Origin: a virus
Lineage: Duplodnaviria > Caudoviricetes
Length of the DNA stretch: 64,000 nucleotides
Direction: 5' to 3' (one strand)
Virus record (IMG/VR): IMGVR_UViG_3300008954_000001
The first letter of the stretch is position 1, and every line of letters begins with the position of its first letter. A model generated the notes under the pieces. It was not told the DNA's origin and did not search any database. It was given only the letters and a program-made list of their open reading frames with translations. Below, in pieces: positions 6,938-54,289 of the stretch. A program made the translations under genes and the position numbers.

Positions 6938-6943
6938 CCCGAT

Positions 6944-8349: not shown

Positions 8350-8669
8350 TGTTCGTCAGGTGGGTTCCGAGAGAGCCAGAAGGCTCGATCTTCGGTCATC
8401 TTTTCCCGTAAGGCCGTTAGGTTGTCGTTGATCTTATCAAACGCTCTGACAGTCTCGTGAGAGAACTCGGTCATCTTCTCTACAATGTCTGAGTGGATCT
8501 TCTCCCGCATCACCAAGAAATCTTTGGTCTGTTCTTCATGTCGCTCTTCCATACGCTCGATCTGCGATTGGTGTCGCTTCTCGGTAGTGCGCTCACGCCA
8601 CATCAAGGAGAGCGTCCACATACCAAGAACCCCGTACTCAACGATTTTTGATATGAATGATTCGTCCAT
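8346..8669 (-). CDS. small membrane protein (single N-terminal TM plus coiled coil), possibly holin-like
   Basis: IVEYGVLGMWTLSLMW followed by a charged coil. Confidence 0.5.
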   Translation of the reverse strand: MDESFISKIVEYGVLGMWTLSLMWRERTTEKRHQSQIERMEERHEEQTKDFLVMREKIHSDIVEKMTEFSHETVRAFDKINDNLTALREKMTEDRAFWLSRNPPDEH

Positions 8670-9112
8670 TAGCCTTGCCTCTTCACATTGGTCTTTCGAC
8701 CACCCTTGATGTAACGGTCGGCCACACGCTTGATCGCTGCGACTCGGTAGGCCGACCCGATCTTGTACTTCTTATCGTTTTCGAGAGAGAAGTTGCGACC
8801 CTTACCAGGAATCGGTGCTCGTTCCCGAAGATTAGGCTCTGATCCCAATTCCCCCGCCGTTTGGCGGTCATACAACTCCCTAAAGATTTGACCTGAAAAG
8901 TTGGCCTGAACCTGACCATCCTCAATGGGTGCGTAGATGTGCTTCTCATCGGGTGGGTACTCAATAGGGCCATCGGCCTCCAACCCAATCAGGGAGGCAT
9001 CCCATGAGTACGCTTGAAGCACTCGCTTTATGGATGGTTTTTCTTTGCCCATACACCGCTCTCCGGTTCGCTTTAGGGGACTCATAGGCAATTTAGTGAG
9101 TCCAGCCCCCAA
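8669..9112 (-). CDS. hypothetical protein carrying RVAxRY tag
   Basis: C-terminal AIKRVADRY. Confidence 0.6.
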   Translation of the reverse strand: MGAGLTKLPMSPLKRTGERCMGKEKPSIKRVLQAYSWDASLIGLEADGPIEYPPDEKHIYAPIEDGQVQANFSGQIFRELYDRQTAGELGSEPNLRERAPIPGKGRNFSLENDKKYKIGSAYRVAAIKRVADRYIKGGRKTNVKRQG

Positions 9113-9692
9113 GCCGATAGAGATACATAGACATATTCATGGTCCAAGAAGTAGGCACCTCGAAGTGGCTGACTAAGTGAAGCCTTTTGTAAACGCTGCC
9201 AGCGGATCTCATGGAGAGGAAAAACGAGCCTGGTTTCATTTCTTGGCAGGCTTTGACGAAAACCTTGTTGATCCCAAGGCTTCCAAAGCCACAGTTAGCC
9301 GAATAAACAACATCTGCATCGCTCAAGTCGTAGTTGAAGAAATCATCGCATACCAACTGGAGCTTCGAGAAGTCCCAAGACTTTGAGGCTCCCTTTACCA
9401 ATCTTCGAGCTTCATTGTGTCGAGTTTCGGATAGTTCAACACCCACGCATTTGCCGTAGCCGTAGTTCACGCAGGTAAATGCGGCTACGGCCCCACGACC
9501 ACTGCCCAAGTCTACGAATTTGCCGCTTCGTATGGGGATGTGGTTCATCATCGTAACGATCCCGGCCTCTTGAATCTCTCCGTAAACATAAAGACACCCC
9601 GTTTTCTTGAACAAAGAAAGTTCTTCGAGAGGCACCGAGTAGATTTCTTTACATTCGGGGGGCCAGTAGTCTTGTAGAGATGCGTAGTTCAT
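9093..9692 (-). CDS. DOT1-like SAM-dependent methyltransferase
   Basis: FVDLGSGRG, CVGVELSETRH, DFFNYDLSDADVVY. Confidence 0.75.
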   Translation of the reverse strand: MNYASLQDYWPPECKEIYSVPLEELSLFKKTGCLYVYGEIQEAGIVTMMNHIPIRSGKFVDLGSGRGAVAAFTCVNYGYGKCVGVELSETRHNEARRLVKGASKSWDFSKLQLVCDDFFNYDLSDADVVYSANCGFGSLGINKVFVKACQEMKPGSFFLSMRSAGSVYKRLHLVSHFEVPTSWTMNMSMYLYRLGGWTH

Positions 9693-13816: not shown

Positions 13817-14128
13817 ATGCGAAGGTCAGAACCCATGACCAGTTGGGTTAATTACGCCTTGTGGTCATGCAACAAACATCTCCCCGCTGCCAGAATCCCC
13901 GCTGATATCGAAAAGTGTTGGTACGGCTGTGGAGATGTTCGCCCATCAATGGAAGCTCGCCCAAAGGCCAAACAAGTTGAGGCTCCTACAAAACTGGTGG
14001 TCCCCAACTCTATGTTTTGTGCGTGGCATGAGTGCAATACTCCGACCCGTGAAGGCTCGAAGTATTGCTCCCGTAACTGCTCAAACAAAAACGCACGAGC
14101 AAGGCATAAGGCCCGTAAAGCCGCCTAA
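13817..14128 (+). CDS. Cys-rich zinc-finger protein
   Basis: CAWHEC...YCSRNCSNK; GGAG SD. Confidence 0.6.
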   Translation: MRRSEPMTSWVNYALWSCNKHLPAARIPADIEKCWYGCGDVRPSMEARPKAKQVEAPTKLVVPNSMFCAWHECNTPTREGSKYCSRNCSNKNARARHKARKAA

Positions 14129-20100: not shown

Positions 20101-23100
20101 GATATTGATCCAAGCGGAGAATGTCATATCTCCCGTCAACCCATAGATGGCGGGATTTGTGATTTCCATCCAATCTGCGGTGCCATCAAACATTAGGGCA
20201 CTGCCGATCATGCCATCAACCATTTGCGGGTTGCCGTGCATGATCCCATTACCAGAAATCATCGTCTCAGAAATCTCGGTCCCGGTCGGCATACTCCAAT
20301 ATCCAACTTGGCCCATCCCAAACGGGGTCGTCCACGGGTCAGGCCATGTGTAGGTGCTGTCGTCCAGTAAATGCTTACCGTGGGTTGCTGAGTGTTGATA
20401 AATTTGTGCAATCACCTCATCTGGTAAAGCAATACCGCTCCAAATAGCCACCTCATCGATGGCGGCGTTTAGAGTATTTCCTTCCCCGTCTTTACCGATC
20501 CAGAGAGTGTTTAGCCCGCCAGCACCAATGCCAGCGGTGATGTGGTTCCCCGCACCATCCAGTGTTTGGTTGCTGGCGTAGCCACCATTGATGATGACCT
20601 TCATTTCTGACCCGTCGTACTTCAAAACAACGTGATTCCAACCACCATCATTCAGTGCAGCGTGGGCTGTTCCAATGGCGGTCGGAGGATTTGCGCCGTC
20701 GATGGTATTTACTATGGACCAAGAGCCGGGGCCGCCAGAGGCCACATCGTTTAAGATCATTGTGCCGAAATTATTTTCGTCGGCTGACCAATGAAGTAGG
20801 GGTTCAACGCCCCCGTGACCCATCTGAAGCCAAAGAGAGATTGTGTATGGCGTGTCTTGGTCAAAGTTTGCGGTTGTGAGAGCTTCCGAGATATCAATGA
20901 ACTGGCCGCTTCCAACCCCACTGTAAAGGTCACGGGCGTTTCCAGCGATACCGTAAGCAGTGCCTGAACCTTCAGGGGTCGGTGCGTACTGTCCAGAAAC
21001 ACCGTCAAAGAAGGGTGCCCAACCATTTAGTTGCCAATGAGCCGTCAAACCCTCCGTGATCCTGGGAGACAACGCATACACCTCATTTGAGGGGAGAGGG
21101 TGCCACGAAATATTGGTGCCGTGGATAATGAATTCTTTGTAGTTGTTCGCCTCCACATCCCAAGCGGATAGGTCTACTTCAACCTCCATTTGTTTCCAAC
21201 CGTCCCCCCTTTTGGAGTGATCCACCCAACCTTGGCTGTGCCGATCAAATTGTCCCGTCGTGTGTCCAACTATGTAGTTAGAGTTATCGATGTACCCTTC
21301 GGCTGTAATCGGAGTGACCAAGTACGTTAGGTCAAGCGTGGGGGTCTCTCCGTGAAGGATGATGTGTTCGCCTGGGATCTCAAGTGTGAAGTGAATCTTT
21401 CCATCGTAATGGTGCTCAACGCTTCCTTCAGCGATTGCTGAATAGTTTATGCCAGGGAGAGTAAGCCGAGGGAACGGGCCGCTTAGATCAGTGAGATATT
21501 GAGTTAAGGTCCAAGCAAAAGGGTCCATCGTAGGAGGGATGGTCAAAGTATCCAGTTCAGAAAGACTCCGATTACCAAGAGCACCCTTTGTATAAATAGC
21601 TTGGATCGCATCGTCTTGAAGGCCCACCTCAAAAAACGCTACATCATCGATCCGTCCGGGCCATGCTCCACCCCATTCCTGCGTACCGCCAAGACCGACT
21701 TTGTTTTTCCAAACACCGTTGTCGTTGAAGGCTCCCCCAGCGTCCCCCACAACTCCCTGAAGATTACTGGTGTCTCCACCACCAAACCACTCATCTGTAG
21801 GGTCGATCTTAGCCCCGCCGTGATCCCCAACCTCAGGTGAAGAGCCGTCTGGGTTCATTAAGTCTAATTTTACGCCATTCCGCCATAAGGCGATGTCATT
21901 GTCCATTCGTCGCATTACGATATGGACCAACTCTCCATCGGGGAAGAACCCCTCGGTGGGATCAACAAAGGATATTTCCCCCCCGGTTCCGTCACCACCG
22001 TTTGAACCGTCACCCAACATCACACATAGTTTATTGGGCCATTCAGGGTTGTCTGCCCTCTCAATGAAAAGAGCCGCATTCCGTCCAGGGACGGACCAGT
22101 CCCAAAGAAGTATGGAAGCCTGATCTAAGTTTCGACCAATGAAACCATCCCAAATAACCCAAAAGGATGCGGTGAAATCACCTTGTCCGATAAGAGGACG
22201 ATCCGTGACTTGGGTATGGAGCAAACGAGCACCGTCCCCTGAAGACTCTTGCGGAAGCTCCAAACTCCACCCTTGACCAATCAAAGGTTGGGCCGCACTT
22301 GCGGAAGTGTTCGCATTCGCCAACTCCCACTCAAAATGGCCGTCCAGAGGTTCAGGCCCACTATGAGTCCACAGTGCGGCATCATTAGTGAAGGAGAGGT
22401 AAGAAATAAGAGAACTGCCACCATCTTTCCAGTAGCCTTCTGGCGGTCCCAGAACAGTGTTCGCAACAAGGCTATTGATCCCACCAACCCCACTTCGACT
22501 TGCGACTGTGAATTGGAAGGGCATGTTTGAACCAGTCTCAATCGGGCTGTGTTCACTGGACATCGCAGCACTAATGGTGTCGTTATCCATTGTTGTTGAA
22601 GTGGGGGTAAAAGACCAACTGGCCGTTTGCGGCATTGAGGCAACACCGCCTGTCAGGTCAGCCCAATCGTAAGAACCAAATTCAATGTCTTCTTTAAGAA
22701 GAATCTCAACATCAAGATTGGTGTAGGGAACACTGTTGTTCATGAGAACACTAAAGGTTTCCATGACGAAAAGGGGGTCGCCAAGGTTGCCAATCGTATC
22801 GATACTGTCCCGTGTGATCCATAAATAATCGGGTTCGTAATCGGCAAACGGCCAGAACCTGATACCTGCGAAAGTGACGGGGAAATCAGCATCGTAGGGA
22901 TATGCGAGGCCAACGATGTTGGTGATGAACCCTGGTTTGGCATCCCCGAAATCGAAAGTCATTAATTTGTGAGTCCCTGCGGGAATCACTGTTATGTTGC
23001 CTGTGACATCGTGGACACCTACTTTGAGTTCCACGGAGGATTCTCGTGCGGACACAAACCGAGATGACGTATGGGCCGTAACGGTAACGTGACTGTTAAT

Positions 23101-23319
23101 AGAGGCGTTAGCCGTGTCACCCCAATCTTCGTGACGAATAACCTCGCTGTAGGTAGTACAATCCGCCGGAAAAAGAACTTCCGTTTCTTGGATTTCAAAA
23201 TTGAGGCAATACAGACCCGAATCTTCAGCGTGATAGTTCAAATCCCATAAACCATCTGGACGGCGTTCGAGCCAAATGTAATTAGTGTGGTCAGTTCCGA
23301 TGGTAACTACTGGTGGCAT
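14125..23319 (-). CDS. 3064-aa virion fibre/adhesin-like protein (LamG, DUF5011 Ig-like, BNR repeats)
   Basis: Several LamG-type repeats (T.S.W...WHH/WNH..IDEVAIW), two DUF5011-like Ig units (GSYTITYEWTD, GEYTLNYSVTD), Asp-box repeats (RSEDGGESW, KSLDMGGSW, RSENDGLSW); very acidic. Confidence 0.8.
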   Translation of the reverse strand: MPPVVTIGTDHTNYIWLERRPDGLWDLNYHAEDSGLYCLNFEIQETEVLFPADCTTYSEVIRHEDWGDTANASINSHVTVTAHTSSRFVSARESSVELKVGVHDVTGNITVIPAGTHKLMTFDFGDAKPGFITNIVGLAYPYDADFPVTFAGIRFWPFADYEPDYLWITRDSIDTIGNLGDPLFVMETFSVLMNNSVPYTNLDVEILLKEDIEFGSYDWADLTGGVASMPQTASWSFTPTSTTMDNDTISAAMSSEHSPIETGSNMPFQFTVASRSGVGGINSLVANTVLGPPEGYWKDGGSSLISYLSFTNDAALWTHSGPEPLDGHFEWELANANTSASAAQPLIGQGWSLELPQESSGDGARLLHTQVTDRPLIGQGDFTASFWVIWDGFIGRNLDQASILLWDWSVPGRNAALFIERADNPEWPNKLCVMLGDGSNGGDGTGGEISFVDPTEGFFPDGELVHIVMRRMDNDIALWRNGVKLDLMNPDGSSPEVGDHGGAKIDPTDEWFGGGDTSNLQGVVGDAGGAFNDNGVWKNKVGLGGTQEWGGAWPGRIDDVAFFEVGLQDDAIQAIYTKGALGNRSLSELDTLTIPPTMDPFAWTLTQYLTDLSGPFPRLTLPGINYSAIAEGSVEHHYDGKIHFTLEIPGEHIILHGETPTLDLTYLVTPITAEGYIDNSNYIVGHTTGQFDRHSQGWVDHSKRGDGWKQMEVEVDLSAWDVEANNYKEFIIHGTNISWHPLPSNEVYALSPRITEGLTAHWQLNGWAPFFDGVSGQYAPTPEGSGTAYGIAGNARDLYSGVGSGQFIDISEALTTANFDQDTPYTISLWLQMGHGGVEPLLHWSADENNFGTMILNDVASGGPGSWSIVNTIDGANPPTAIGTAHAALNDGGWNHVVLKYDGSEMKVIINGGYASNQTLDGAGNHITAGIGAGGLNTLWIGKDGEGNTLNAAIDEVAIWSGIALPDEVIAQIYQHSATHGKHLLDDSTYTWPDPWTTPFGMGQVGYWSMPTGTEISETMISGNGIMHGNPQMVDGMIGSALMFDGTADWMEITNPAIYGLTGDMTFSAWINIPIDGGLGTIARCMEWANFGLGMWSDNFGAYIGATWYGNQGQELLVREVQATMGGERLNHDLRDGLWHHIAFTRYSSHDTTPMAVLWVDGVNIGEIALPLLEVAGGNPQSTPTDCAIGASVSQGVATNHFVGAMQEVSFWDRPLTYQEIAEIRAKGVQQLSLYAPQEDLAAIKTNVEEAATPGTANVGITNVEGNDGAVAWEDVLVLAGPRDWAYWPAIPVSEGVIQTPFASGDGWYADQVDHEFALNLMSYGPHTVTAWVRPIYSAGAWNYPIFIQRNVEEDMGGNDAMGYYLIADSDSPDVGKLTASHGPHQSFDPDFGGTSSTANLVTEDVDPTGFAWHHVAFVHTGNTIKFFINGVFDSEHAYHLLGMPLVQGDQQVTQIILGGRVFNMPPQEGEETAQGFTGYMNDIRLYARELSGTEVQTIFEEDTAAAILYLIGDSIVTITEGDSYIEEGFVALDPPKGEKTVWDGDLTATPANLSYGGSIDENTAGSYTITYEWTDDSGNVSNIDRTIIVEAAAVPDAIQLNGENNSIAGTWDGNYWSPDPSWVDSGASMYDGDGNVVASTTRNLYRMVADPNGGGMWELVADFTKAGIYKANYFELADDATDNEDLDSSFVATGAYLLNQRYIAVPSGPVTVSLVQLEPGTTTPNGNLVQDYTYEVYLDLPYASDGWNSLYVAYNPSIVFAELGEDLPDGWVFVYNPVDDNRLAQWDNSYPYVYIDEGNQHIATVTFDSAPDENGYYGHNWSSGWYVAGWSMALSDDNGTAFTRTDNAALNPNVVLGSITAFVPTVDPADYPAPRLEVVGQNPMFHTWGTEYSDPGVRLIESDGTVWEASTGGNYSALSGDLVPSQKYTGGDGIAPGDGGTGTSTKGEYTLNYSVTDNTTGLTATAERTVHVEELFESAIGRLDPSERTLDPNIPVFGPPDGSDGLPTEWTMLFGDGVVATLDVSTGTSETAVTTAQDSGLGTFSSHSAEGDLIGRAGGFVVVGNPTTHEDQIAWAKVSDLSDGVSEAFQTESLTIDSQPASIAAMVSEPFHQTVLVVTQVGEGMYAAAFQNADIEALWGVSPDSAPQISILTAPNVGTFTSHGTMRPDNPNVDYANSPFAVLGIEGYGFTYEGAADSTPLADRVVGLRIISDGPTVDVDYDPFTGTLYEWSGKHVINHTASEQEGSGLVINPVAELRFANDGGDEIEVGYGFNPGSSLKVTSMGVQPYTGIYWFVCEDPTGSTESSYFFEYDTTEWWEHGSDLFVYSYAQIWEALGVPSVAWGYGELKELSKPYFDLVEYKIFMGHSRGLVVLGPWQEWFGSGHYGIELFDALGAPAQITEISGSYNFGEGQGVLMAVGHTTNGGILFRSEDGGESWERVVTNPDKLISIENVGANGYGVWVVGGENGVFGISFNDGYSFENLPAVEALSDAQCCGILYASSTDTHNFGQTIFQDSTGATWISSESGLPGSWGNQNQMPTVLGDQTGVGSLLNPSPLAFGYRTVSQDPLSPYWVAYADPSSGYGQVTDALMLYTTRDNDGPDERGAWYINALATEGDPDFGWHQTDTSMFLALPAYFQTDEIPGPLGDAVWVHSAGEEYELYDNKDTGFEGLFESHLGYHLAGMGPNLADPNQWVPSVTNMEPVLARVNYTPNPNAVELADMGDGTWGIYLRNVDDIWGFQFEIAAAEIDPSSTLSSPHFGSITVAGPDNSLVILTDFSGSYAPSGEGWLVQGLILNGTPTGLVNIFASDQEGNDLLAGYRDAAAPTTAMSSPNNVKWFGVGTGQQATTTRLLVRPEIESTDAQLGFPPITVFAQFSDGPPVGLPVAESVAWVNSGPPCFASDNYYLGEDHWYIPQVGGLAISPDTNGSTGLVAGLVGWTIEPFADSDDDPVTLYMAKYSPEWGILMVVGTSSSGKGCVFKSLDMGGSWTPSLEVPNTDLRVLDGDDSGKWVAAGSNHTLYRSENDGLSWKLDDTFDHAGTSGEIVAANFAAYPIAPDGDEA

Positions 23320-25465: not shown

Positions 25466-26824
25466 TCAAAACATGGCGTGGGGGAGCTTCATTCCTAATA
25501 GATCCGCAGCCTTAAAAAGGTTGTTGCGGTGCAGCGAGATATCCCAATTAGGGTTCTGGATACTTTGTGAAAGGCGGTTTAGGGCGGCTCGTTCGTTGTT
25601 GGATAGCTTTAGCTTCTGCATGAGGTGAATCCCAACATCCGCCATCATGGTAGCCGTAGCCGTATCCCCTTGTTTACTAAAGGATCGTGCCAGCTTGAGG
25701 TATGCCCGCCTGTCTAAAATGCCCCATAGGATGTTGTTGTCTGAGGCTGCGGTCTTGGTCTGCCCTAACGCCTTAACGTGTCGAAGTAACTCCGAGTTCG
25801 ATCTGGCTACCGCAGAAGGGTTTATTCTTCCATGGTTATACTTCTTGAGGAATCCGCTCAAGACACCATTAATCTGATCCCTGAAAGCTAAGGCAAACTC
25901 CTCCCAATCCATTCTTTGCGGCGTGATATGAAGGTTTGTCGTACCCCCCACACCAATTGAAAGCCACACCTTGTACTCCCCACCAACTAATCGTTGAAGC
26001 GCATCCCTTTGTTTGTCTCCGTCTTCATGGCTTAAAGCCCCAAGAGGCCAAACGAAATCGGGCTTAGATGCAGTTTTTTCGTAGGTGCGTCCAAGCACAC
26101 TGGCGGTCATACACAGGGACATCTGCTTGGAGAGGTAGCGGGAGAGGGTCTTGAGTTCTCGGACAGCCTTAGCGGGATCAGGGCGGTGCCGTCCCGTGCC
26201 TTGGATTCGATTTAGCGGGCCACGAATCTTCTTCCTGATTTCTTTTGCCATCGAAGAGGTGCCGAGTTCACTGGTCAGCGAATCGGCTGCTTGGAGGTCT
26301 TCGATTACTGCGCTCATATCCTCATTAGCCGCATCAGCCACGGCTTCGTTGATCTTTTCTACCAGCTTACGGAGGGCGGGCTTACACGAAAGGATGCTCT
26401 GGTTCTGCCACGGGCCAGCGTTACTCTCTAACCCAACAGGGTATTGACCCTTGGGGAGTTGCTTGCCATCTGGTGTCTTGTGCCGTCTGGAATCGAAAGC
26501 ATCGATGTACTTGCTTTTTCCGTTCATTTTGGATCGCTTGATCTTCAACATTGAGGCACGAGCAGAGTCGAGATCCCGATGCTGCTCAATCTTGGTGCGG
26601 AACTTATCACCGAGTCGGCCCCATCGACGGATGAGCTTGGCCGATCCATCACGGGCTACGAGAATGAGCATTTCGTAGTATTTGGACTTGTTTGATCCAG
26701 CCTCAATTGCATAAAGCATAGCGGCTTCGTCGGCCATTACCTTCGACTTGGTAAGACCCTCACGCTCTAAGTAGGGCTTCCCCGCCGCCACTTTCTCGTA
26801 TCTGCTGATTACGTTCTCAATCAT
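25466..26824 (-). CDS. WGR-domain protein with tag motifs
   Basis: KYYEMLI...LIRRWGRLG...A...K..K...Y is a WGR domain; ATG 26824 with AGAGG SD; NVISRY, KVAA, KTAS, KTAA motifs. Confidence 0.7.
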   Translation of the reverse strand: MIENVISRYEKVAAGKPYLEREGLTKSKVMADEAAMLYAIEAGSNKSKYYEMLILVARDGSAKLIRRWGRLGDKFRTKIEQHRDLDSARASMLKIKRSKMNGKSKYIDAFDSRRHKTPDGKQLPKGQYPVGLESNAGPWQNQSILSCKPALRKLVEKINEAVADAANEDMSAVIEDLQAADSLTSELGTSSMAKEIRKKIRGPLNRIQGTGRHRPDPAKAVRELKTLSRYLSKQMSLCMTASVLGRTYEKTASKPDFVWPLGALSHEDGDKQRDALQRLVGGEYKVWLSIGVGGTTNLHITPQRMDWEEFALAFRDQINGVLSGFLKKYNHGRINPSAVARSNSELLRHVKALGQTKTAASDNNILWGILDRRAYLKLARSFSKQGDTATATMMADVGIHLMQKLKLSNNERAALNRLSQSIQNPNWDISLHRNNLFKAADLLGMKLPHAMF

Positions 26825-26928
26825 TTCATCCCTCTGCCAATGCCTATTTCGGTATGGTTTCCGTATAAGAGGTAGCAACCATTGTTGCTTATACAGAAAC
26901 AACCGAACATCGAACGGCGGGAAAGACT

Positions 26929-35804: not shown

Positions 35805-36074
35805 TTTATCAAAATAGAGAATTTTCTATCAGAACATAAAATATCTTATACCCCCCAACTAACAGTTGGGCCGGGATCAAAGGGGCTGATCTCACTTCCC
35901 CCCTTGTTTCGGGACATCCAAGATATAAACTTTCTGTAATTCAGTTCTTGAAACCCTTATCTAAACCAATACTGAAGCTATCACTTCCAGTAGTTACGTG
36001 GGCCGTTCAGCCCAACGACAGTATGCGATAGACACACACATGAGCAGACATAGTTTACAAAAACGGAATCTGTT

Positions 36075-36461
36075 GTGTCGAAGGATAAGCAATTACAACC
36101 GCTAAACTTTAGCGATTACATAGAGAAACGAGAAAAGTCTCGTGGTATCGAGGTGTACCGAAAGCAGCAAAGGCTGTGGGATCACCCCGAAACTCTCGAT
36201 GCAGAAATCATAGAGCTTGTTGCGGCGAAGGAAGCCAAGCAAGCGGAACCTTCGGTAGTGAACACCCAAAACATTCAGACCCAAAACATTCACTACCACC
36301 ACTACCACGACCCCGAACGGCCAAGGGCCATACGGACCCCTGAGCCTCAAAAGAAACCCAATCAAATCTCCGAAGGGGATGCCCTACTCTGGTTCTTCTC
36401 TCTCGTAGGGTCTGTTTTCCTTCTTGGGTTGCTTTTATCGGCACTCTTTTCGGGGAATTGA
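36075..36461 (+). CDS. protein with C-terminal TM helix
   Basis: His run, hydrophobic C-terminus. Confidence 0.55.
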   Translation: MSKDKQLQPLNFSDYIEKREKSRGIEVYRKQQRLWDHPETLDAEIIELVAAKEAKQAEPSVVNTQNIQTQNIHYHHYHDPERPRAIRTPEPQKKPNQISEGDALLWFFSLVGSVFLLGLLLSALFSGN

Positions 36462-36810
36462 TTTGGAAAGGCGTATCAGCATAGCCCTAACGCTGCTGTT
36501 CGCTCTGAACGTCACAGATGCTTTACTTACAATTGTTTGGGTACGCCTTGGGTTAGCCAATGAAGCAAATCCTCTTATGGCTGTTTTGGTAACAGACCAC
36601 ACCGTACTTTTCGTATTGGCTAAAGTGTTCTTGGTGTTGGCCGGGTGCTTCCTTTTATGGCGTTTCCGAATACAACCTCTTGCACGACACCTACTGGCAG
36701 TCTGTGTGCTGGCTTATGCGCTTGTAGTAGCGATACACACCCATATGATCCTTCAACTGGATCAAGTCCCACTCCAAGAAATCCAACGCTGTATAGAAGC
36801 GGCCTACTGA
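36424..36810 (+). CDS. DUF5658-family membrane protein (start probably slightly downstream)
   Basis: LNVTDALLT...GLANEANPLM...AK motif. Confidence 0.7.
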   Translation: MGCFYRHSFRGIDLERRISIALTLLFALNVTDALLTIVWVRLGLANEANPLMAVLVTDHTVLFVLAKVFLVLAGCFLLWRFRIQPLARHLLAVCVLAYALVVAIHTHMILQLDQVPLQEIQRCIEAAY

Positions 36811-39800
36811 ATAGTGGCCACGTCTTCGGGGGAGCACTCGACTTCATGGGGGTGCTCGGTTTGTGGGTGAGCAACAAAGGTAACGCCCATCTTCTCCACA
36901 AAACTTTGGAAGATGCTCATATGTTGGTCTTCCCAAACATGAACAACATCAAAGCCATGTTTGACATGGAGTTGGTGGATGACCTTCTTCTTATAGCTTG
37001 AAGTGTCGCCCCCTTTATTGAGGTACACCTCATCGAAGTTGAGTCCCGCACTCTTCAAGAGTTCTGGCACACGCCAACGGAACCTCCCGTCCATCCTACC
37101 CGTACAACAGATGGCCCAAACATTTGGGTTCCCTATGCTTCGTTTAGCTTCCGCTACGGTTTTACCATCCCACCATTCCTTACCTGGAGCGAGAGGAACA
37201 CACGGAGGACTTAGAGATAATTGGTTTCCCCACCACCCCTTTTGATCCCACCACGAAGGTTTATGTGGGGATCGAAACAACGTCCCATCGAAATCAAACA
37301 AGTGTAGTTCTTTTCGGCCACTGGCCCTTAGACGGCGGTTTACCACCTGTTCAACCATGCCGGGATCAAGAACCTCTCCTTGCCTCCTCGCCAGAAAACC
37401 CACCTGGCCTCTCAAAACCGGACCATTGATCTTTGTGTATCCTCGACCAAGTAATTTGTTGCTGTAGGCAGGGGAAACACCGTTCACCGCAACCGTAATA
37501 TGGGCGACACCCTTGTCTTGTCTTTGAATCCCTCGTGGTTGCACAACAACCGCTTGCCCGTGCTCGTCTGCGCCGTACCCAACCACTTTGAGTGCAATAC
37601 TGGCCCCGACAGGGAGATCCATGATTTCTTTATCGGTAGGCCCAAACTTGATGGTCATGTGGTGCGCTTTCACAGTTGGGTGAAGCGGCCCCACATTCTT
37701 TGTCCACCATCGCAGCAGTGCTTGAGAGTCAGACAAGAACACACCTGAGTACACAGCCTGACCAGCAGTTCTGCTAACGGCGAAGTTTTCGTATTCCCCT
37801 TTGATTACTTTCTCGAACCATTCCTTGTGCTCTTTAGGTAGGGTCTTGGTGGCTCGCATAGAAGCGGCTTCGCAGAGGTGCTCTTCGGCATCGGAAGCTG
37901 CGTAAATGGACGGAAACTTGAGTTTGTTCTCCGACTTCTTAAACCAGCCGAAGAGCGTCATTCGTTCTACTGTGCCTATCTCTTTCTTTGTGGCGATATC
38001 TACAAGATGGGCGGCTCCCCCATTACTCCCGTACTCGCTAACCATGACCTCTTTATTGTTGACCTGCATAGGCAACACTTCGCCCACTTCGGGCAACTTG
38101 GTTTCCACCCTCTTTGTGCTCAAGTCGGAATGGTATTGCCGCCACCTTTGCCAAATCGCCTTATCGAGAAACTTGTTCTTATAGCGATGGGTTAGTTCGT
38201 GGATCAGGTTTTGAACAGCACTGACTTCGGAGATGCCTTTACCACTGACCCGAAAGTAAACGGCATCTTTGGAAGGCATGTACCAAGCAGCCCAATTTGG
38301 TCTGCCGATCTTTCCAACGATGTACACATCCCCATAAAGGGTACGAGCAAACCTCGGCAACCCTGTTCCTCGCTTCGATTTTCGGACAGCCTTTTCAAGA
38401 ATCTGAGAGATCCGTGCTCTTTCCGCTTCGTCAGCACCAACCGTGTCGTGAACTGTGAATGGCCCAACTGTCCAAATGCCCCCACCTTCGCTGGATCTGT
38501 CTTTCCATTTGATACTATCAATCAGGAGGGGCCAACGCTTTTTGTTCGTCCGATACCACTTGTCATAACCTTGCCTTGGTCCTTTCCCCCTGCCGTACCG
38601 CACGGAAAAAAGCCTCGCAAGCATCTCAACACCTTTAGCCCTCCTTGCGGGGATCGCCTTCTTATCGATGACATGCTCAAGCCATTTCCGCCCGATTGCG
38701 TAAAACCTTTGCCACGCCATCCACAGTTCTGCCGTATTGCCCAACCCATGAGCTTCGTTGTAGTCGATGCGACTTTCAAACTCGTAGTAGGTCATCACAA
38801 GGGCCTCGGCCACCAGTGAAGGCGTAGCTTTTTTATCCCACTTCTCCATAACGGTGCCGTCATGGATGTAGGAGTCCTCCATCTTAGGGACAAGGTACTG
38901 TGAGCGTAGCGTTGAGGACTCGTGGCCTACGACTTCTGCGGTCGCTTCAAGGGCTTTCGTGAACTCGGCTTTGAGGATTTCGTCTTTCTCTTTTCGGTCA
39001 GTGGGGAGGGTCTTGCCCTTCTTACGCTGTTCTTTGAGTTGCCTGACCATCTCATCGTTGGCTCGGAATCCACGAATGTCTTTAGCGGTGATGTCGTACT
39101 TCTTTAGGTACTTGTTCACATCCTCTGCTTTGACAATACAATCGTCGCCTTCACACAGGACGGTATCTGTACCCGACTTGCCTTTGAGGGCTTTCTTCAA
39201 CGCTGAAACTGTTGCGTGGTCCGCAACAGTCTTCTTTTGGTCTACGCCTGACTTGCCTGTGTAAGTGAGGGTGGCTTTGCTGCCTGTGATTTTTACATGC
39301 TTGGCTTGAAGCGTGGTGACCCCGAAATGGCCTCGGTCTTTTACGGATTGGTCGTTGCCTACTCGCTCACAGGTTTCGTCCATCAGGGCGACTGCAAGGG
39401 CTGTCAAACGGACTTCGGGATCATCGGATTTGAGATCAGACTTGTACTGTTTCCGCAGGTCCAGGATGTTGCCTTTAAGTTTTTGAATCCGCTTCGCTTT
39501 TTCACGGTTGCGGTGGTCCACCTGTCCTTTGGAATACTCGTAGACGGTGGTCTTCCCAGACCCGTCAGCTTTATCCACCTGTTTCTTCTTCTTGAACTTG
39601 GCGGCTACTCGGCTGGCGGCTGCGTGAAACGTAGGCTGATAGTCAACTCTGGGCCATTTCACGAGGTTCAGGTCTTGATTGACCAACTCAAACTCATCTC
39701 CGACCTTGGGCTTAGGGTAAGACCAATACTGCTGTGCCATGAGTCCGGGGTGTCTCCCGATAGGCTCCAAGTCCTTCGGGTGGATACGCCTGATTTTGAA

Positions 39801-39932
39801 GACCACTTTATCAACGTAGTCGGGATCGGTGGGGTGTGTCTCGATCCTCAAAAGAGCAAGCTCGGAACCTTTCAAGGTCTTGAGGATCTGCCCCTTCCTG
39901 AAACCAGGGTTCGCATCGTATCGGGTGCTCAT
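36804..39932 (-). CDS. multidomain protein: topoisomerase IB + HExxH peptidase-like + 2H phosphodiesterase + HAD phosphatase
   Basis: TopIB pentad R190,K227,R287,H337,Y346; HELTH 578-582 plus EEHLCE; HMT(758) and HIT(811); DFDGT(880). Confidence 0.8.
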   Translation of the reverse strand: MSTRYDANPGFRKGQILKTLKGSELALLRIETHPTDPDYVDKVVFKIRRIHPKDLEPIGRHPGLMAQQYWSYPKPKVGDEFELVNQDLNLVKWPRVDYQPTFHAAASRVAAKFKKKKQVDKADGSGKTTVYEYSKGQVDHRNREKAKRIQKLKGNILDLRKQYKSDLKSDDPEVRLTALAVALMDETCERVGNDQSVKDRGHFGVTTLQAKHVKITGSKATLTYTGKSGVDQKKTVADHATVSALKKALKGKSGTDTVLCEGDDCIVKAEDVNKYLKKYDITAKDIRGFRANDEMVRQLKEQRKKGKTLPTDRKEKDEILKAEFTKALEATAEVVGHESSTLRSQYLVPKMEDSYIHDGTVMEKWDKKATPSLVAEALVMTYYEFESRIDYNEAHGLGNTAELWMAWQRFYAIGRKWLEHVIDKKAIPARRAKGVEMLARLFSVRYGRGKGPRQGYDKWYRTNKKRWPLLIDSIKWKDRSSEGGGIWTVGPFTVHDTVGADEAERARISQILEKAVRKSKRGTGLPRFARTLYGDVYIVGKIGRPNWAAWYMPSKDAVYFRVSGKGISEVSAVQNLIHELTHRYKNKFLDKAIWQRWRQYHSDLSTKRVETKLPEVGEVLPMQVNNKEVMVSEYGSNGGAAHLVDIATKKEIGTVERMTLFGWFKKSENKLKFPSIYAASDAEEHLCEAASMRATKTLPKEHKEWFEKVIKGEYENFAVSRTAGQAVYSGVFLSDSQALLRWWTKNVGPLHPTVKAHHMTIKFGPTDKEIMDLPVGASIALKVVGYGADEHGQAVVVQPRGIQRQDKGVAHITVAVNGVSPAYSNKLLGRGYTKINGPVLRGQVGFLARRQGEVLDPGMVEQVVNRRLRASGRKELHLFDFDGTLFRSPHKPSWWDQKGWWGNQLSLSPPCVPLAPGKEWWDGKTVAEAKRSIGNPNVWAICCTGRMDGRFRWRVPELLKSAGLNFDEVYLNKGGDTSSYKKKVIHQLHVKHGFDVVHVWEDQHMSIFQSFVEKMGVTFVAHPQTEHPHEVECSPEDVATIQ

Positions 39933-40186
39933 TCTTGCTCCTCATGCCGAAACCAGACTCGGAACAGTTGAATGGCTTTCGTCTGCTTGCGCCCTTTGGG
40001 AATAGGGTCTACCAAGACAAGGGGGTTCCCTTTGGGGTCTTTGTCGAACCCAACAATCACACCAGCCTTGTTCTTGTATTTGCCGTACCACACCTGATCT
40101 CCCTCATTCAGCGTAAGCGTGAGGGCTTCTTTCTTCCGTGCGTACTTAGCAGCTACTCTGGCAGCCCAAGGGTTCTCTTTCATCAC
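39929..40186 (-). CDS. small SH3/KOW-like protein with RVAAKY tag
   Basis: WAARVAAKY then GDQVWYGKYK...GVIV. Confidence 0.6.
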   Translation of the reverse strand: MMKENPWAARVAAKYARKKEALTLTLNEGDQVWYGKYKNKAGVIVGFDKDPKGNPLVLVDPIPKGRKQTKAIQLFRVWFRHEEQE

Positions 40187-42678
40187 ACGCCCTCGTGTTC
40201 GAGGATGGACTTGATTTCTTCTTGGGTCAGCCCCTTATCGAATTTTGCGTGGGCATACTCAACGATCTTGCCGACAAACTGTTCATAAAGTTCGTCGCTC
40301 TTGCCCTCTTTAGCGAGGCGGATCATGTCCTTGTCTTCAAGGATGGTATCGATTTCGGTAGAAGCAATCGTAGATACGGCGTTGACCATCCATTCCACAG
40401 CACTTCCAATACCCCCAAGAGCACCCGTCCCGTAGTTCCCCACAGCTTCAGCCATCGACCCACCCGCAAGCGTAGCTACATCCTGAGCGCCTTCAGCGTG
40501 GAGAAGCATCTTATCCCCTACCGCCGTGTACGCACCGATGCCGATATGGAGCGTAAGGGAGTTCAGAAAGGCTTTACCACCCACGGCGGCAAAGCCACCC
40601 GCAGTTGAAATGCCTCCGGTGGCAATACCGACACCTGTCGCTACTGCTATACCTCCCGCATAGATAGCGGAGCCGTATAGAACATCCCTCTCGCTGGCCT
40701 CTCCTTCACTACATTCAGTTTTGGAGCCTTCCGCATCACACCCCTTGGGCCATTTCTTCTTCTCGCTTGAAGGCACCCGCCCCTCTTTGATGCAATCCAT
40801 CAGAATCGTGGGTGTGTTGATAGCAACATTCCGAACTTCTCGAACGGTCGAGCCAGCCAGCTTTTTAACGATGTTTACAGGATTTGCGTGTTCCAGAATC
40901 TTCTTAGCAAGGCTTTTTGATTTCTTCTCGTCTGTGATCTGCGAAACGGCTTCTTGACCTTCCTTGGTCTGAATAGCTTTCGCTGTGGAGGCTGGCAGCT
41001 TCGTACCCTCAGGCACCCCCGCCGCTGACAAATGGGCTTTAGAAGGTGCGCTACCACCCCCAGAACCACCCCCGCTTTGGCTCTTTACCTTATGGTCACG
41101 CTCTTTGGCATTCGGGTGATCTCGCAGATGTTTCTTCATCGCCTCTTCGGTGGCGTGTTCCATCGCATAGCGATGAGCGACCTTTTGAGCCGAAAGTTTG
41201 AGTAAATAGCGTTCGGTTACTCGGTCTTGGCTGGTCTTGATCCCAGCTTCGGCAAGCTCATCTTCCAGTTCGTCGAGGATATCTTGCAAGGAAGTGGCTC
41301 CTGTGGGGGAACTTGACCCAACCTTCCCCATAGCTTTGTTCATAAATAGTTCCGGGTCGAAAGACAATGTGGGCCTCCCTTGCAATACAGCCCTTTCAAG
41401 AGAATCCTCTACTGAAGCTGTTGATAGGAAACGTAAAATAATCTCAGGATTGATATACGACTTACGAGTAGTATTCGCAGAGTCGTGAGACAAAGCGGCT
41501 TGCGCCACATCAATAGCCCTATTCAAAGTCTCCACAATCGCTTCCACCACCCTCTGTTTCAGGTCGGTTTTCGCTCCTGTGGAAAAGGCTTTAATCCGAT
41601 CAAACAAGGCGGCTTGTTCGTCTCGAAGCGCATCTAAAACAGCTTCCGTAGCCCGTAACTTCCTAAAGTCTGTGGGGGAAACGTCTTTGAACCGCTCTCG
41701 AAAGTAGCGTTGAAGGTCAGAGTAGGTGACTCGTTGGCCCTTGCTGGTAACGAAGATGAACTTACCGCCCTTAGCCTTGTCGGTTTGGGCTTTCAGGATC
41801 TTGATGATTTCAGCGTCCGTAAGGGAAGCGAAGTTATGGCCCCCCTTCTTGCCCAAGAATTCCAGTTCGGCAAAGTTGTCTCGGATGAATCTAACGTGCG
41901 ATGGGCCAAGCGTAATGGCCCCAAACGTCTCGATCTCAACCTTTTCTCCGTTCACCGTCTTAATGGCGGCATTTCCCTCTTTACCGGGTCGGATGCCTGT
42001 CTCCATCATGATCGCAGTAATCAGGGCGGAGAGCTTGATGACCTCATCCCCTGACTTTAGATCCCGCTTCACCTGCTTGGCGATCTGGTTGTAATCCCGA
42101 ATCAGGTTGTGCATTTTGTCGATCTTCTTCCCAAGCGTCAGGTGTTCGTTCTCGAACCGATCTGTGATCCCTTGAACTTGCCCGTTCTCATCGACATCTA
42201 CGACGATGTTATCGGGCAAGAAATCTCGAAGCTCGGTGGGAAGCACTTCCCGCATAGGGCCTTGGGCTTCGGCCATTGTGATCGCTTGAAAGCCCTTAAA
42301 GGCTTGTTTGTGGACTTCTACCAGAGCATCCCGAATAGTTTTACCTTTTGTAAGAACATCACGGGCTTGGTAGAGGATGGCTGACCGCCATGAGTAGGCT
42401 TTGGGGTGGTCGGCTTCCTTGCCGATATAGGTGTCTAAGTATTCGAGAAAGATGGGGTTATTCTTCACCAACTTGACGAAAGCTCTGGCCCTGCGAGAGA
42501 TCGACCCCTTATCCCGACCAGGGTGCTCCACTTTTGCGGAATCCGCATAGGGCTGGAGGGTTTTCAGGAGTTTCTTGAACTCCACCCCCGCCTTGCGGAC
42601 ATGCTTCTCCTGATCTTTTTTGTCTCGTTTGTACTGCCGAGACTCGTTAGTCGGTACTCTTGCCATTCGCTCTCTCAC
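40183..42678 (-). CDS. topoisomerase IB catalytic-domain protein with N- and C-terminal extensions
   Basis: ETGIRPG, FGAITL, FLGKKG, DFRKLRA, LSH...RKSYINP keep the full R-K-R-H-Y set. Confidence 0.8.
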   Translation of the reverse strand: MRERMARVPTNESRQYKRDKKDQEKHVRKAGVEFKKLLKTLQPYADSAKVEHPGRDKGSISRRARAFVKLVKNNPIFLEYLDTYIGKEADHPKAYSWRSAILYQARDVLTKGKTIRDALVEVHKQAFKGFQAITMAEAQGPMREVLPTELRDFLPDNIVVDVDENGQVQGITDRFENEHLTLGKKIDKMHNLIRDYNQIAKQVKRDLKSGDEVIKLSALITAIMMETGIRPGKEGNAAIKTVNGEKVEIETFGAITLGPSHVRFIRDNFAELEFLGKKGGHNFASLTDAEIIKILKAQTDKAKGGKFIFVTSKGQRVTYSDLQRYFRERFKDVSPTDFRKLRATEAVLDALRDEQAALFDRIKAFSTGAKTDLKQRVVEAIVETLNRAIDVAQAALSHDSANTTRKSYINPEIILRFLSTASVEDSLERAVLQGRPTLSFDPELFMNKAMGKVGSSSPTGATSLQDILDELEDELAEAGIKTSQDRVTERYLLKLSAQKVAHRYAMEHATEEAMKKHLRDHPNAKERDHKVKSQSGGGSGGGSAPSKAHLSAAGVPEGTKLPASTAKAIQTKEGQEAVSQITDEKKSKSLAKKILEHANPVNIVKKLAGSTVREVRNVAINTPTILMDCIKEGRVPSSEKKKWPKGCDAEGSKTECSEGEASERDVLYGSAIYAGGIAVATGVGIATGGISTAGGFAAVGGKAFLNSLTLHIGIGAYTAVGDKMLLHAEGAQDVATLAGGSMAEAVGNYGTGALGGIGSAVEWMVNAVSTIASTEIDTILEDKDMIRLAKEGKSDELYEQFVGKIVEYAHAKFDKGLTQEEIKSILEHEGV

Positions 42679-42770
42679 CGCTTACCCCAATAAAGGCACA
42701 CTACTCATAGAGTAGGATAAGAAATTTACCGAGATCCCATCCAACGGACTGTACCGATGAAGCGGGTATT

Positions 42771-43004
42771 GTGACCGTCTTACTTGGGATTGAGGAATAC
42801 ACCATGATTTACTTAGTGCTCTACACAATGGCTGTTATTTGGGTCGTTGCGGGGCTTCTCTACGCTGACAATTACTTAGTACATAGCAAGACCGAAGTGG
42901 TTTTTGCCCCTCTTTTACTGGTCTTCACCACCTTCCAATTCATTTTGGAGCGTGGATACCGTCTTTATCAACGGGGAACACGATCTTATCTATTCAGCAG
43001 GTAG
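42771..43004 (+). CDS. small membrane protein
   Basis: Two hydrophobic segments; GAGGA SD before MIYLV. Confidence 0.5.
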   Translation: MTVLLGIEEYTMIYLVLYTMAVIWVVAGLLYADNYLVHSKTEVVFAPLLLVFTTFQFILERGYRLYQRGTRSYLFSR

Positions 43005-43059
43005 CCGTTGGTTGCCCTATTGATCCACTAAAGCAACGGCTGCGGATCAAGGAGGCCCT

Positions 43060-43548
43060 ATGAGCTATTTAATGAACAAAAAGACCCGGTTTCGGCTTGG
43101 GGAGCTTGAAGATGCGGTAGAAGAACTCGCCTTCACACATACAATTTCGGCAGATCACGGGAGCAATCCCGACCAAATCGTGGTGTTTTCCTATAACGCT
43201 TCGGAGTTTCTTGGGGGGACAATGATTGTCTACCTCCGAGATGATGCCACGCCACCCAATACTGGCGTAGCTGAATACCTGTTCGTCAACGATCTTGCCT
43301 CCACACCCAATGCCGAAGCCAGCATAACAAAGGTCGATAAGCGGCATGTTAACGGAACCGCAGACCGAGGCACCACAGATCAACCTCTTAGTAATAACGC
43401 CGAAGCCCACATCGTAGATGGGGTCGTCAATCTGACGGTCGAACCTTCTAATATAGGTGCTCTCACCGCAGGTACGGTGCTGACAGGGGTTGCTTTAGTT
43501 ACCCCCATCCCGAACCTGTGGGAAATGGGCGGAGACCCTGGTGAGTGA
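43060..43548 (+). CDS. hypothetical beta-rich protein
   Basis: AAGGAGG SD. Confidence 0.65.
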   Translation: MSYLMNKKTRFRLGELEDAVEELAFTHTISADHGSNPDQIVVFSYNASEFLGGTMIVYLRDDATPPNTGVAEYLFVNDLASTPNAEASITKVDKRHVNGTADRGTTDQPLSNNAEAHIVDGVVNLTVEPSNIGALTAGTVLTGVALVTPIPNLWEMGGDPGE

Positions 43549-43550
43549 CC

Positions 43551-43793
43551 CTACTTGAACACTCGGTCTTTAGCTGTCTCGAACAACTGTGGAAGAAAGC
43601 TCTTTTTGAGGCGTAGAAGTCTCTCGAACTTCACCTTCTTACGAGCATCCACATAGAGTTGTGTAGGCTTCTTAATCTCGCCCTCAATAAGCTGATCCGA
43701 GAAATCATAGAACTTGGTACGCTCAGGGGGCTTCGCATAAGCATTGGTGTGGAAAAAGCTCAGAGCCAAGACCATCAGTAAACCCCTAATCAT
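43551..43793 (-). CDS. cglF: CglF/GltF-like secreted protein (myxobacterial gliding-motility family)
   Basis: Signal peptide (...AYA) plus YDFSD...EGEIKKP...Y...RKK..F..L......F.P.L pattern, recalled as the CglF signature; GAGGAG SD. Confidence 0.6.
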   Translation of the reverse strand: MIRGLLMVLALSFFHTNAYAKPPERTKFYDFSDQLIEGEIKKPTQLYVDARKKVKFERLLRLKKSFLPQLFETAKDRVFK

Positions 43794-53347: not shown

Positions 53348-54289
53348 TTAATGCCATCTTCGCCCTCGATATCGAGAGGCGACTTTGCGGGCGGTGTGTT
53401 TGAGGACTACGTTGGAAGCCCACATTCCGTAATCATCACGGGGGCCGTACTTGGCCTCATAGGGAATGTCATAGTCGGGGTCTTCATCTGGCGGCTCATA
53501 TCCTGGCTGATTCATTTCCCAAACATTCTCAAGATTCCGCCCTAAAAGAGCGAATGACCCATCCGAGTGTTCTTGGTGTATTTCCTCCAACTCGTCCATC
53601 TGCTTGTCCGTGTAGTCACGTCGTCGCACTTCGAGCCGATCCGCCATAGCGTTGTAGTCGGGCTTGGAGGGTTGTTTTTGAGGCCGCTCAGAGATGTTGT
53701 ACTTGCGGAACATCTTCTCTGCGAAAGCGATTTGCTTATCTGATGGCTGGCGAGTCTTAGCCCGTTTACCCACATCTTCGGCAAACCTCTGCACATAACT
53801 ATCGTTTGCGGCCTTCGCTGCGAGCCATAATTGACGGAGCCTTTCAAGAAACGTCTCATCTGAGGAATAACTTGAACCCGAACCGCCCGATTCCTGTTGT
53901 TTCGGCTCGGCTTCCTCACCACGCCCGATTCGGTCATAGAAATCAGGGTACTTTTGGTACACGCCTTCCCAATGCCGAACGCCAGCGAGCCAAGTCTTTT
54001 TCCAACCCTTTGTTCGCATAAAGGATTTGCGATCCTTTGCCTTCGCATTGAGAACCCGTCCCGTGATGCGACTGACAAGCGTGAGCTTCATGGAGGCTTT
54101 ACCAAGCCCTCGAACTTGGGAAGTCGCTCCAATAGAGGAGGAGAGCTTGATGGCCACGGAGTCACTGAGATGAATCAGATAGATCCCCGCAAACTTTTGA
54201 TCCCGTGACCAGTTCCTACCGAAGTTGCGGCGAAGCCACTCTTCTAACTCTTCACGAGAAATCTGAACATATCGATCACCAGCAGCCAT
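53348..54289 (-). CDS. hypothetical protein with KVASRY tag
   Basis: C-terminal TARKVASRY; coupled to the helicase stop. Confidence 0.65.
   Translation of the reverse strand: MAAGDRYVQISREELEEWLRRNFGRNWSRDQKFAGIYLIHLSDSVAIKLSSSIGATSQVRGLGKASMKLTLVSRITGRVLNAKAKDRKSFMRTKGWKKTWLAGVRHWEGVYQKYPDFYDRIGRGEEAEPKQQESGGSGSSYSSDETFLERLRQLWLAAKAANDSYVQRFAEDVGKRAKTRQPSDKQIAFAEKMFRKYNISERPQKQPSKPDYNAMADRLEVRRRDYTDKQMDELEEIHQEHSDGSFALLGRNLENVWEMNQPGYEPPDEDPDYDIPYEAKYGPRDDYGMWASNVVLKHTARKVASRYRGRRWH

Follow-up and report, generated by a model that had tools for sequence, protein, structure and literature searches.

Internal proteins of phage T4 and the T4 protein Alt are loaded by means of a capsid-targeting sequence, and the prohead protease gp21 trims them; the head genes of T4 follow the order portal, gp67/68, gp21, gp22 and gp23. 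The type IB topoisomerase (TopIB) of vaccinia virus is packaged in the virion, and enzymes of this type need neither ATP nor Mg/metal. We describe here P0001, the 1042-residue product of the open reading frame (ORF) 36804-39932 on the minus strand of a 64-kb stretch of viral DNA (IMG/VR record IMGVR_UViG_3300008954_000001; Duplodnaviria, Caudoviricetes), the whole of which is called the window below. P0001 is predicted to join a TopIB to a zinc protease, a 2H phosphodiesterase and a HAD phosphatase. We consider it moderately probable that P0001 is a TopIB-centred polyvalent protein, which would be loaded into the capsid through a short peptide tag and delivered with the DNA. The tag has the form R-V-A-x-[RK]-[YFW], mostly with S/A before it and often with L after it.

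Polyvalent proteins have been described with MuF, portal or ArdC-N anchors, the spot between portal and prohead protease being the usual place of the MuF type; their 2H domains were never seen with RNA ligases, and neither TopIB nor CCA-transferase is listed among their domains (Iyer, Burroughs, Anand, de Souza, Aravind 2017, J Bacteriol; PMC5512222). The P0001 family resembles these proteins in joining unrelated enzyme domains in one polypeptide, with variable architectures that are shuffled among homologues, in having a zincin peptidase and a 2H domain among its modules, and in that relatives of P0001 are encoded in the head-morphogenesis module. InPase and ART-PolyVal, Pfam families that were defined on polyvalent proteins, and DUF5661 are likewise found in relatives or in tagged neighbour genes, and MPTase-PolyVal matches weakly. 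The family differs from the described polyvalent proteins in that its constant module is TopIB, in that CCA-transferase, RNA ligase and HAD_SAK domains occur together with 2H, in that a recurrent short tag bounds its modules, and in that the P0001 gene itself lies outside a head module. Since this gene has no head marker around it in the window, the polyvalent membership of P0001 rests on homology. No description of TopIB in phage head modules or in polyvalent proteins was found in the literature, huge and jumbo phages included; an earlier analysis of the same DNA without database searches (the sequence-only reading) did not know this architecture from described proteins.

With T4, the relatives of P0001 share a mirrored gene order (portal, small core proteins, protease, scaffold, capsid) and a short terminal peptide that is present on non-structural enzymes and absent from structural proteins. 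The sequence of the tag is unrelated to the T4 capsid-targeting sequence, however, and it is found at N-termini, at C-termini and between modules, with no Glu-type cleavage signature; for the P0001 family, loading is our proposal and cleavage a possibility. With the vaccinia and Deinococcus TopIB, P0001 shares the catalytic domain and the R-K-R-H/N-Y pentad, and virion packaging of the vaccinia enzyme parallels the packaging proposed for P0001. In contrast, the ~70-residue N-terminal domain of the pox and bacterial enzymes is not recognisable in P0001, which has the tag and an unrelated 104-residue region instead, and the predicted topoisomerase of P0001 is fused to ~670 residues of other enzymes.

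Domain architecture of P0001

The reading frame 36804-39932 is open through 1042 codons without stop or frame break, and the GC content is even along the gene (0.50-0.52). The identical 1042-aa protein was called on at least ten contigs (JGI, ENA, Logan), scaffolds of 75 and 282 kb among them, and the fusion is therefore not an assembly chimera; that it might occur only here as such a chimera had been raised by the sequence-only reading, and this possibility was rejected as far as sequence data reach. From domain matches and structure models, we confirmed P0001 as one predicted polypeptide of TopIB, zinc protease, 2H phosphodiesterase and HAD phosphatase, and the motifs that had been named for these four domains were found again at the same residues.

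The TopIB module (aa 118-370; 38823..39581, on the minus strand like all features of P0001) matched PF01028 (Topoisom_I) at aa 140-341, with an E-value of 1.6e-26 and 93.5 bits against a cut-off of 23.7. Its closest solved relative is the Deinococcus radiodurans TopIB 2f4q (E 1.4e-12), and the pentad residues R190, K227, R287, H337 and Y346 align in register with the motifs RVGSD, GKHG, KDFR, GN and SY of this enzyme. The catalytic pentad is invariant in 118 of the 118 family TopIB modules. As judged from these residues, the module of P0001 is catalytically intact and is a predicted type IB topoisomerase. The alignment covers residues 69-310 of the Deinococcus enzyme, starting at its residue 69. 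Upstream of the tag, the N-terminal region of P0001 (aa 1-104; 39621..39932) has a fold without recognisable family, with no Pfam match and no Atlas lead, and the BLAST module map showed that it is common to few relatives only (P0007-P0013 and P0046, where P-numbers stand for family proteins and, below, L-numbers for IMG/VR loci).

The next module, M (aa 376-715; 37788..38807), is predicted to consist of a four-helix bundle (~376-480) and a zincin-like metallopeptidase (~480-715) with the motifs HELTH (578-582) and EEHLCE (683-688), the second of which holds the candidates for the third zinc ligand. In the alignment of 17 homologous modules, H578, E579 and H582 were invariant, as were E684, H685 and C687, with E683 nearly so. 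The M module of P0001 belongs to no Pfam family and gave no hit to MPTase-PolyVal (PF18818), for which weak hits were obtained in 3 of 17 relatives of the module (best E 0.0042), and its profile gave nothing usable against the sequences of solved structures. The AF2 model of the module (pLDDT 87) exhibited the four-helix bundle followed by a domain (model residues 105-338) with zincins as top structural matches. With VIA-align, this domain matched PPEP-3 (Z 8.8), anthrax lethal factor (8.4) and Wss1 (7.6), and also aspzincins and M1 enzymes, these Z-scores being near the noise level of ~8 stated for the tool. The Foldseek hits of the model were zincins too and were weak, with E-values of 0.03 or worse in PDB and of 1e-4 in AFDB; Wss1 was among them with a probability of 0.96 and a TM-score of 0.51 by target. 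We read the M module as a putative zincin, for which the motif evidence is strong and the fold evidence moderate.

The 2H phosphoesterase (aa 726-855; 37368..37757) is unusually compact, with ~125 aa, and carries the motifs HMT (758-760) and HIT (811-813). An exhaustive HMMER search gave 722 cluster representatives of this domain, many of them stand-alone proteins of 130-160 aa, and the H758-x-T760 and H811-x-T813 motifs were 99-100% conserved among 144 homologues. The family tRNA_lig_CPD (PF08302; CPD, cyclic phosphodiesterase) was matched by 67 of 70 homologues, with a best E-value of 3.9e-8 and with P0021 above the threshold; the own sequence of P0001 stayed below it, with 14.7 bits against a cut-off of 23. 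A search of the domain sequence against solved structures gave nothing usable. In the AF2 model (pLDDT 90.6), the fold corresponded to CNPase catalytic domains, with a Foldseek probability of 1.0 and TM-scores of 0.55-0.60 by query, and among the matches listed 50 of 50 were 2H enzymes, including RICH, the phage BCSR5 phosphodiesterase and a 2'-5' RNA-ligase-like protein. Homologues and model assign the predicted 2H domain to the tRNA-ligase CPD / CNPase branch of the 2H superfamily, as the sequence-only reading had proposed from the two HxT motifs.

The C-terminal module (aa 870-1042; 36807..37325) is a predicted HAD phosphatase of the HAD_SAK_1 / polynucleotide kinase (PNK)-phosphatase type, which matched PF10307 (HAD_SAK_1, the Swiss-army-knife HAD that the sequence-only reading had proposed) with an E-value of 8.8e-12 and 45.7 bits against a cut-off of 25.6, and PHROG 415 (polynucleotide kinase) with an E-value of 8e-5. 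In 20 homologous modules, D880, D882 and T884 of the motif I DFDGT (880-884) were invariant and G883 nearly so, and T944, K981 and E1001-D1002 of motifs II-IV were invariant or nearly so. The HAD profile against solved-structure sequences gave nothing usable. The Pfam scan of P0001 found no kinase or ligase domain and no HKD/Tdp1-like domain. P0001 does not join HAD_SAK with a kinase and/or an RNA ligase in one protein; relatives do carry RNA_ligase and PolyA_pol.

Constant TopIB core and variable cargo in the family

P0001, from a giant uncultured phage, is one of a large family of huge-phage proteins from metagenomes. In a search of 5.8 billion proteins, more than 120 clusters were found to carry the TopIB module at 50-65% identity, the rest of the protein differing. 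Counted by cluster, the extra domains are HAD_SAK_1 (~29), 2_5_RNA_ligase2 (13), PAP2 (12) and Fe/Mn superoxide dismutase (SOD; 5), and others are a PolyA_pol-type nucleotidyltransferase, RNA_ligase, HD, GNAT, InPase and DUF5661. In the larger IMG/VR ORFs we also found InPase, RNA ligase, a CCA-type transferase with an intein, PAP2, GNAT and an M14-like domain. InPase (PF18823) is found in the TopIB ORFs of L087 and L031, the former of which keeps TopIB alongside a true RNA ligase, and ART-PolyVal (PF18760) in a tagged neighbour gene in L030.

The order of the modules changes as well. According to the BLAST module map, the HAD domain is at the N-terminus in many relatives, and the M module precedes TopIB in P0015 and P0042 and lies far downstream of it in P0008-P0011. 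The closest relatives, P0004-P0006 (55-66% identity over TopIB and M), have other cargo, for example SOD, instead of 2H-HAD, and in the natural variant P0003 TopIB is directly joined to 2H-HAD without M. The M module is present in only ~17 of 121 family proteins and also occurs without TopIB, in P0048, which has the architecture HAD-2H-M, and in a giant ORF of Virus Rctr197k. In this 197-kb virus (L003), the module lies in a ~2175-codon ORF (2626-9153, annotated as misc_feature) directly after a terminase-like gene; a tblastn search with P0001 detected no TopIB in this ORF.

In L004 (9459-10004) and L005 (9456-10001), HAD_SAK_1 has its own 181-aa gene, which overlaps the TopIB gene at its start, but in L006 (10001-14185) it is fused to the N-terminus of the TopIB protein. 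As the comparison of L004 and L005 with L006 illustrates, the family acquires and loses modules through fusion and fission of genes. In all these proteins the TopIB core is constant and intact, while the cargo enzymes vary and change their order, and the RNA-repair theme of the cargo (2H, HAD_SAK, RNA ligase, CCA-transferase) is real. We observed also that the CCA-type nucleotidyltransferase in the 2806-aa TopIB ORF of L023 (4019-12439) is split by an intein with a LAGLIDADG endonuclease; the CCA-type nucleotidyltransferase of an 877-aa neighbour at the P0043 locus is likewise intein-interrupted (LAGLIDADG).

Head-module context of the relatives

With a profile of the TopIB module, 178 relatives were detected in IMG/VR, the largest of their contigs measuring 536 kb; 80 loci were fetched, of which 65 are non-redundant. 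Terminase, portal, head-maturation protease and major head protein, named by PHROGs at one locus and extended to all loci with profile hidden Markov models (HMM), served as head markers. The TopIB ORF (344-2834 aa) was inside the head module in 52 of the 65 non-redundant loci. In the usual arrangement, terminase and portal come first, then the TopIB fusion and two small conserved proteins, and after these protease, p432, p226 and capsid. The tagged genes between portal and TopIB code for enzyme fusions: CCA-transferase with HAD_SAK and 2H, GNAT, and 2H with ART-PolyVal. One clade exhibits a different order, with terminase, a stand-alone TopIB of ~350 aa, four small genes of ~175 aa, and portal; the loci with this stand-alone TopIB directly after the terminase are L047, L050, L056, L059, L064, L066-L072 and L086. 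In the head module of L005, an IS605 OrfB/TnpB-type gene (7537-8775, minus strand) is inserted between the portal and TopIB genes.

In a maximum-likelihood tree of the TopIB modules, P0001 together with its relative from L001 is sister to nine head-module fusions, with a support of 81/88. A second TopIB protein of the window, P0002, has its nearest TopIB relatives outside its own lineage in head modules as well (L026, 2257 aa; L029, 500 aa). Non-head contexts are scattered on this tree, which is unrooted, and at least five changes are forced by well-supported branches. The simplest reading, on a tree that by itself does not prove the direction of movement, is that the TopIB genes of the phage of P0001 moved out of the head module.

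A recurrent tag at module edges and protein termini

The tag is found at the N-edge of nearly every TopIB module and at the C-edge of the M module in several relatives, and in many family proteins it lies within ~15 residues of the N- or C-terminus. In P0001, a regular-expression hit, supported by conservation, placed the tag with a following basic stretch at the N-edge of the TopIB module (aa 105-117, AASRVAAKFKKKK; 39582..39620); R-V-A-A-[KR]-[YF] and the K-K pair are kept in ~80-97% of the 118 TopIB modules. At the M/2H border, a decayed copy (aa 718-726, AVSRTAGQ; 37755..37781) aligns with the canonical S-x-x-R-V-A-x-R-W tags of P0004, P0006 and P0012. That tags mark the domain borders of P0001, as the sequence-only reading had stated, is thus true for the canonical tag at aa 108-113 and for this decayed copy, and not for all borders.

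The density of tags in the loci is 1.25 per 1000 aa in TopIB ORFs and 0.26 per 1000 aa in the other proteins, and no tag was found in ~93,000 aa of terminase, portal, protease, p432, p226 and capsid proteins. Longer ORFs tend to have more tags (r 0.59). In non-TopIB proteins, 27 of 51 tags are at most 30 aa from a terminus, compared to 11.7 expected. The window contains six tags compared to 0.8 expected, a number reached in 0 of 300 shuffles: one in P0001 (aa 108), one at the N-terminus of an 85-aa ORF, two in P0002, and one each at the C-termini of ORFs 8669-9112 and 53348-54289. A chance or low-complexity match as the origin of the tag was rejected by the shuffle tests.

The conserved residues of the tag are spaced such that they would fit one face of an amphipathic helix. 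Because the tag is often at extreme termini, a docking peptide fits better than a mere cleavage site, and we regard a putative docking signal as at least as likely as a putative cleavage site. A complex prediction with the inter-module double tag of P0047 and the two small post-TopIB proteins of L006 gave a score of 0.00 with all chains poorly folded, and is uninformative on binding.

Surroundings of the P0001 gene

Upstream of P0001 on the same strand, an 85-aa ORF (39929..40186, minus strand; an 84-aa gene on independent contigs) starts with a tag (AARVAAKY), behind which lies a small beta-rich region; with the N-terminus of P0001 it has no more than the 8-residue tag in common. It is preceded by the gene of P0002 (831 aa; 40183..42678, minus strand), a divergent TopIB protein that matched PF01028 with an E-value of 2.9e-14, is 24% identical to the TopIB of P0001, and has two tags after its TopIB domain (aa 486 and 499). 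The tags of P0002 are followed by a GGGSGGGS linker and a long Gly/Ala-rich hydrophobic C-terminal region, which from its sequence looks able to insert into membranes. Because the genes of P0002, the 85-aa ORF and P0001 overlap by 4 nucleotides each (GTGA, ATGA), they form one unit that is probably translationally coupled. The trio was also called on independent contigs. In the close relative L001, the small ORF is missing from the TopIB pair and the cargo is SOD.

Two further tagged ORFs lie apart from this unit. The first (8669..9112, minus strand; 147 aa) has a tandem double tag at its C-terminus and matched, with an E-value of 1.4e-6, the HMM of the small post-TopIB head-module protein p188, whose family has an acidic low-complexity stretch and a conserved C-terminal K-K-A-S-x-F-G-L-F-like peptide. 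The second (53348..54289, minus strand; 313 aa), directly downstream of a UvrD-like helicase gene, has the tag RKVASRY 6-11 residues from its C-terminus and gave no Pfam or PHROG match. The window codes also for a trypsin-like protease, for a 3064-aa protein (14125-23319, minus strand) with several Laminin_G_3/ConA-like and bacterial Ig-like domains, which is probably a fibre or adhesin, and for a 478-aa protein (25466-26902, minus strand) in which only a WGR domain (E 4.6e-10) is recognisable. A megablast search with 20 kb of the window against cultured-phage records gave no match, a scan of IMG/VR with P0001 for close relatives was likewise negative, and in a promoter/terminator scan of 36000-43600 the counts were at shuffle level.

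Discussion

The sequence-only reading had offered three options for P0001: a self-contained machine for healing and sealing nucleic-acid ends, a topoisomerase with its own adduct-repair kit, and a polyprotein of virion-delivered anti-defence enzymes cut apart at the tags. The third option fits best, because the cargo shuffles round a constant TopIB, because 52 of 65 loci are in the head module, and because the tags are on enzymes and not on structural proteins. Its virion-delivered, multi-enzyme part best fits the comparative data; cutting at the tags does not stand in the same way, docking being at least as likely. As general explanations, the two other options have little probability, since the cargo changes around an unchanging TopIB and stand-alone TopIBs are encoded at the same locus.

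In the polyvalent reading that we favour, the tags would direct P0001 into the prohead core during assembly, in the way in which internal proteins of T4 are guided by their capsid-targeting sequence. There P0001 may be cut by the prohead protease or by its own zincin, and it would leave the capsid together with the DNA. While the very long phage DNA is packaged, ejected or first transcribed, the TopIB would be its swivel, and such a role inside the capsid or on just-injected DNA would suit a TopIB because neither ATP nor metal is needed. The 2H and HAD domains would arrive ready-made and heal 2',3'-cyclic-phosphate/3'-phosphate RNA ends from host anticodon or defence nucleases; alternatively, they may destroy cyclic-nucleotide alarm signals. 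For these two domains RNA/tRNA repair is favoured, because RNA ligase and CCA-transferase co-occur in relatives. The zincin may release modules or attack host proteins.

Several points weigh against this proposal. Searched with the head-marker profiles, the window yielded no homologue of terminase, portal, protease or capsid, and the neighbours of the P0001 gene are DNA-metabolism genes (UvrD-like and SNF2 helicases, SbcD-like nuclease, deoxynucleoside kinase) together with envelope-type genes; since the gene is outside any head module in the window, packaging of P0001 itself is something that we infer from its relatives, among which 11 of the 65 loci have no head marker either. P0001 contains a single canonical tag, and as the tag at the N-edge of TopIB is kept in every context, it could simply belong to the TopIB module; we know of no receptor for it. 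We infer also the cleavage at tag sites, the ejection and all substrates, and virion proteomics for any family member was not found in the literature. In the cytoplasm, the TopIB could just as well take part in replication or transcription.

A broader form of the proposal, which we put forward tentatively and with less confidence, is that huge phages with T4-like head modules use R-V-A-x-[RK]-[YFW] as a general cargo-loading code around a packaged TopIB. The cargo would be a counter-defence kit injected for the first minute of infection, comprising tRNA/RNA end-healing, CCA repair, ligase, SOD, ADP-ribosyltransferase, acetyltransferase and pyrophosphatase, the TopIB would be an energy-free swivel while the very long genome is packaged and ejected, and P0001 and P0002 would be tagged cargo genes moved out of the head module.

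It is unlikely, though the most serious of the competing explanations, that P0001 is a cytoplasmic enzyme that is never packaged. TopIB would then be a replication/transcription swivel for a 280-320-kb genome, with its own end-cleaning enzymes. Eukaryotic and vaccinia TopIB cutting at DNA-embedded ribonucleotides leaves 2',3'-cyclic-phosphate nicks, which a 2H cyclic phosphodiesterase and a 3'-phosphatase would possibly turn into ligatable 3'-OH ends, and 2H and HAD are exactly the two healing activities required. The invariant pentad, the lack of head markers in the window and the position among UvrD, SNF2, SbcD-like exonuclease and deoxynucleoside kinase genes are all consistent with such a role. 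However, 80% of the relatives are encoded between portal and prohead protease, the family cargo is often unrelated to nucleic-acid ends (SOD, PAP2, GNAT, InPase, ART), and the tags common to other enzyme proteins stay unexplained.

The healing and sealing machine, in which 2H and HAD would heal RNA or DNA ends and TopIB would join them to a 5'-OH in place of a ligase, appears improbable. The lean of the cargo to RNA repair (HAD_SAK_1, CPD-type 2H, RNA_ligase, CCA-type nucleotidyltransferase) speaks for it, and P0001 has no ligase or kinase domain, which leaves the sealing step open. Yet healing by 2H and HAD removes the phosphate that a TopIB-type joining would need, relatives with a true RNA ligase retain TopIB (L087), and stand-alone TopIBs of 350 aa without repair domains occupy the same head-module locus, which disfavours this option as a general rule.

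We give still less credit to a TopIB with an adduct-removal kit, made of a Wss1/SPRTN-like protease, a phosphodiesterase for the peptide-tyrosyl remnant and a 3'-phosphatase. In its favour, the zincin has Wss1 as one of its structural matches (Foldseek probability 0.96, VIA-align Z 7.6) and the HAD domain resembles PNK-type 3'-phosphatases, but unrelated zincins match equally well or better (PPEP-3, Z 8.8; lethal factor, 8.4). Cleavage of 3'-phosphotyrosyl bonds is not known from 2H enzymes, and the Pfam scan of P0001 found no HKD/Tdp1-type domain. The M module, present in only ~17 of 121 family proteins, also exists without TopIB, P0003 keeps TopIB-2H-HAD without M, and the cargo is often SOD, PAP2, GNAT or CCA-transferase, all of which disfavours this option. 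That P0001 is an assembly chimera or a read-through of separate genes has next to no probability: family modules are sometimes separate adjacent genes, as with the 181-aa HAD_SAK_1 gene of L004 and L005, but the identical 1042-aa product comes from three independent sources (at least ten contigs), with no stop or frame break and an even GC content across the gene.

P0001 provides a four-enzyme construct in which each predicted activity is open to single-residue controls. If the polyvalent reading is true, TopIB, which forms the constant core in at least 178 IMG/VR loci and in more than 120 protein clusters, would be a new component of the phage head and a bacterial-virus parallel to the poxvirus virion TopIB, with a possible ATP-free relief of torsional stress in very long genomes. 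The tag would be an address label for capsid cargo, with which injected proteins of uncultured phages may be predicted and foreign proteins loaded into capsids. Pre-packaged RNA/tRNA repair and signal-degrading enzymes would then be a common early counter-defence.

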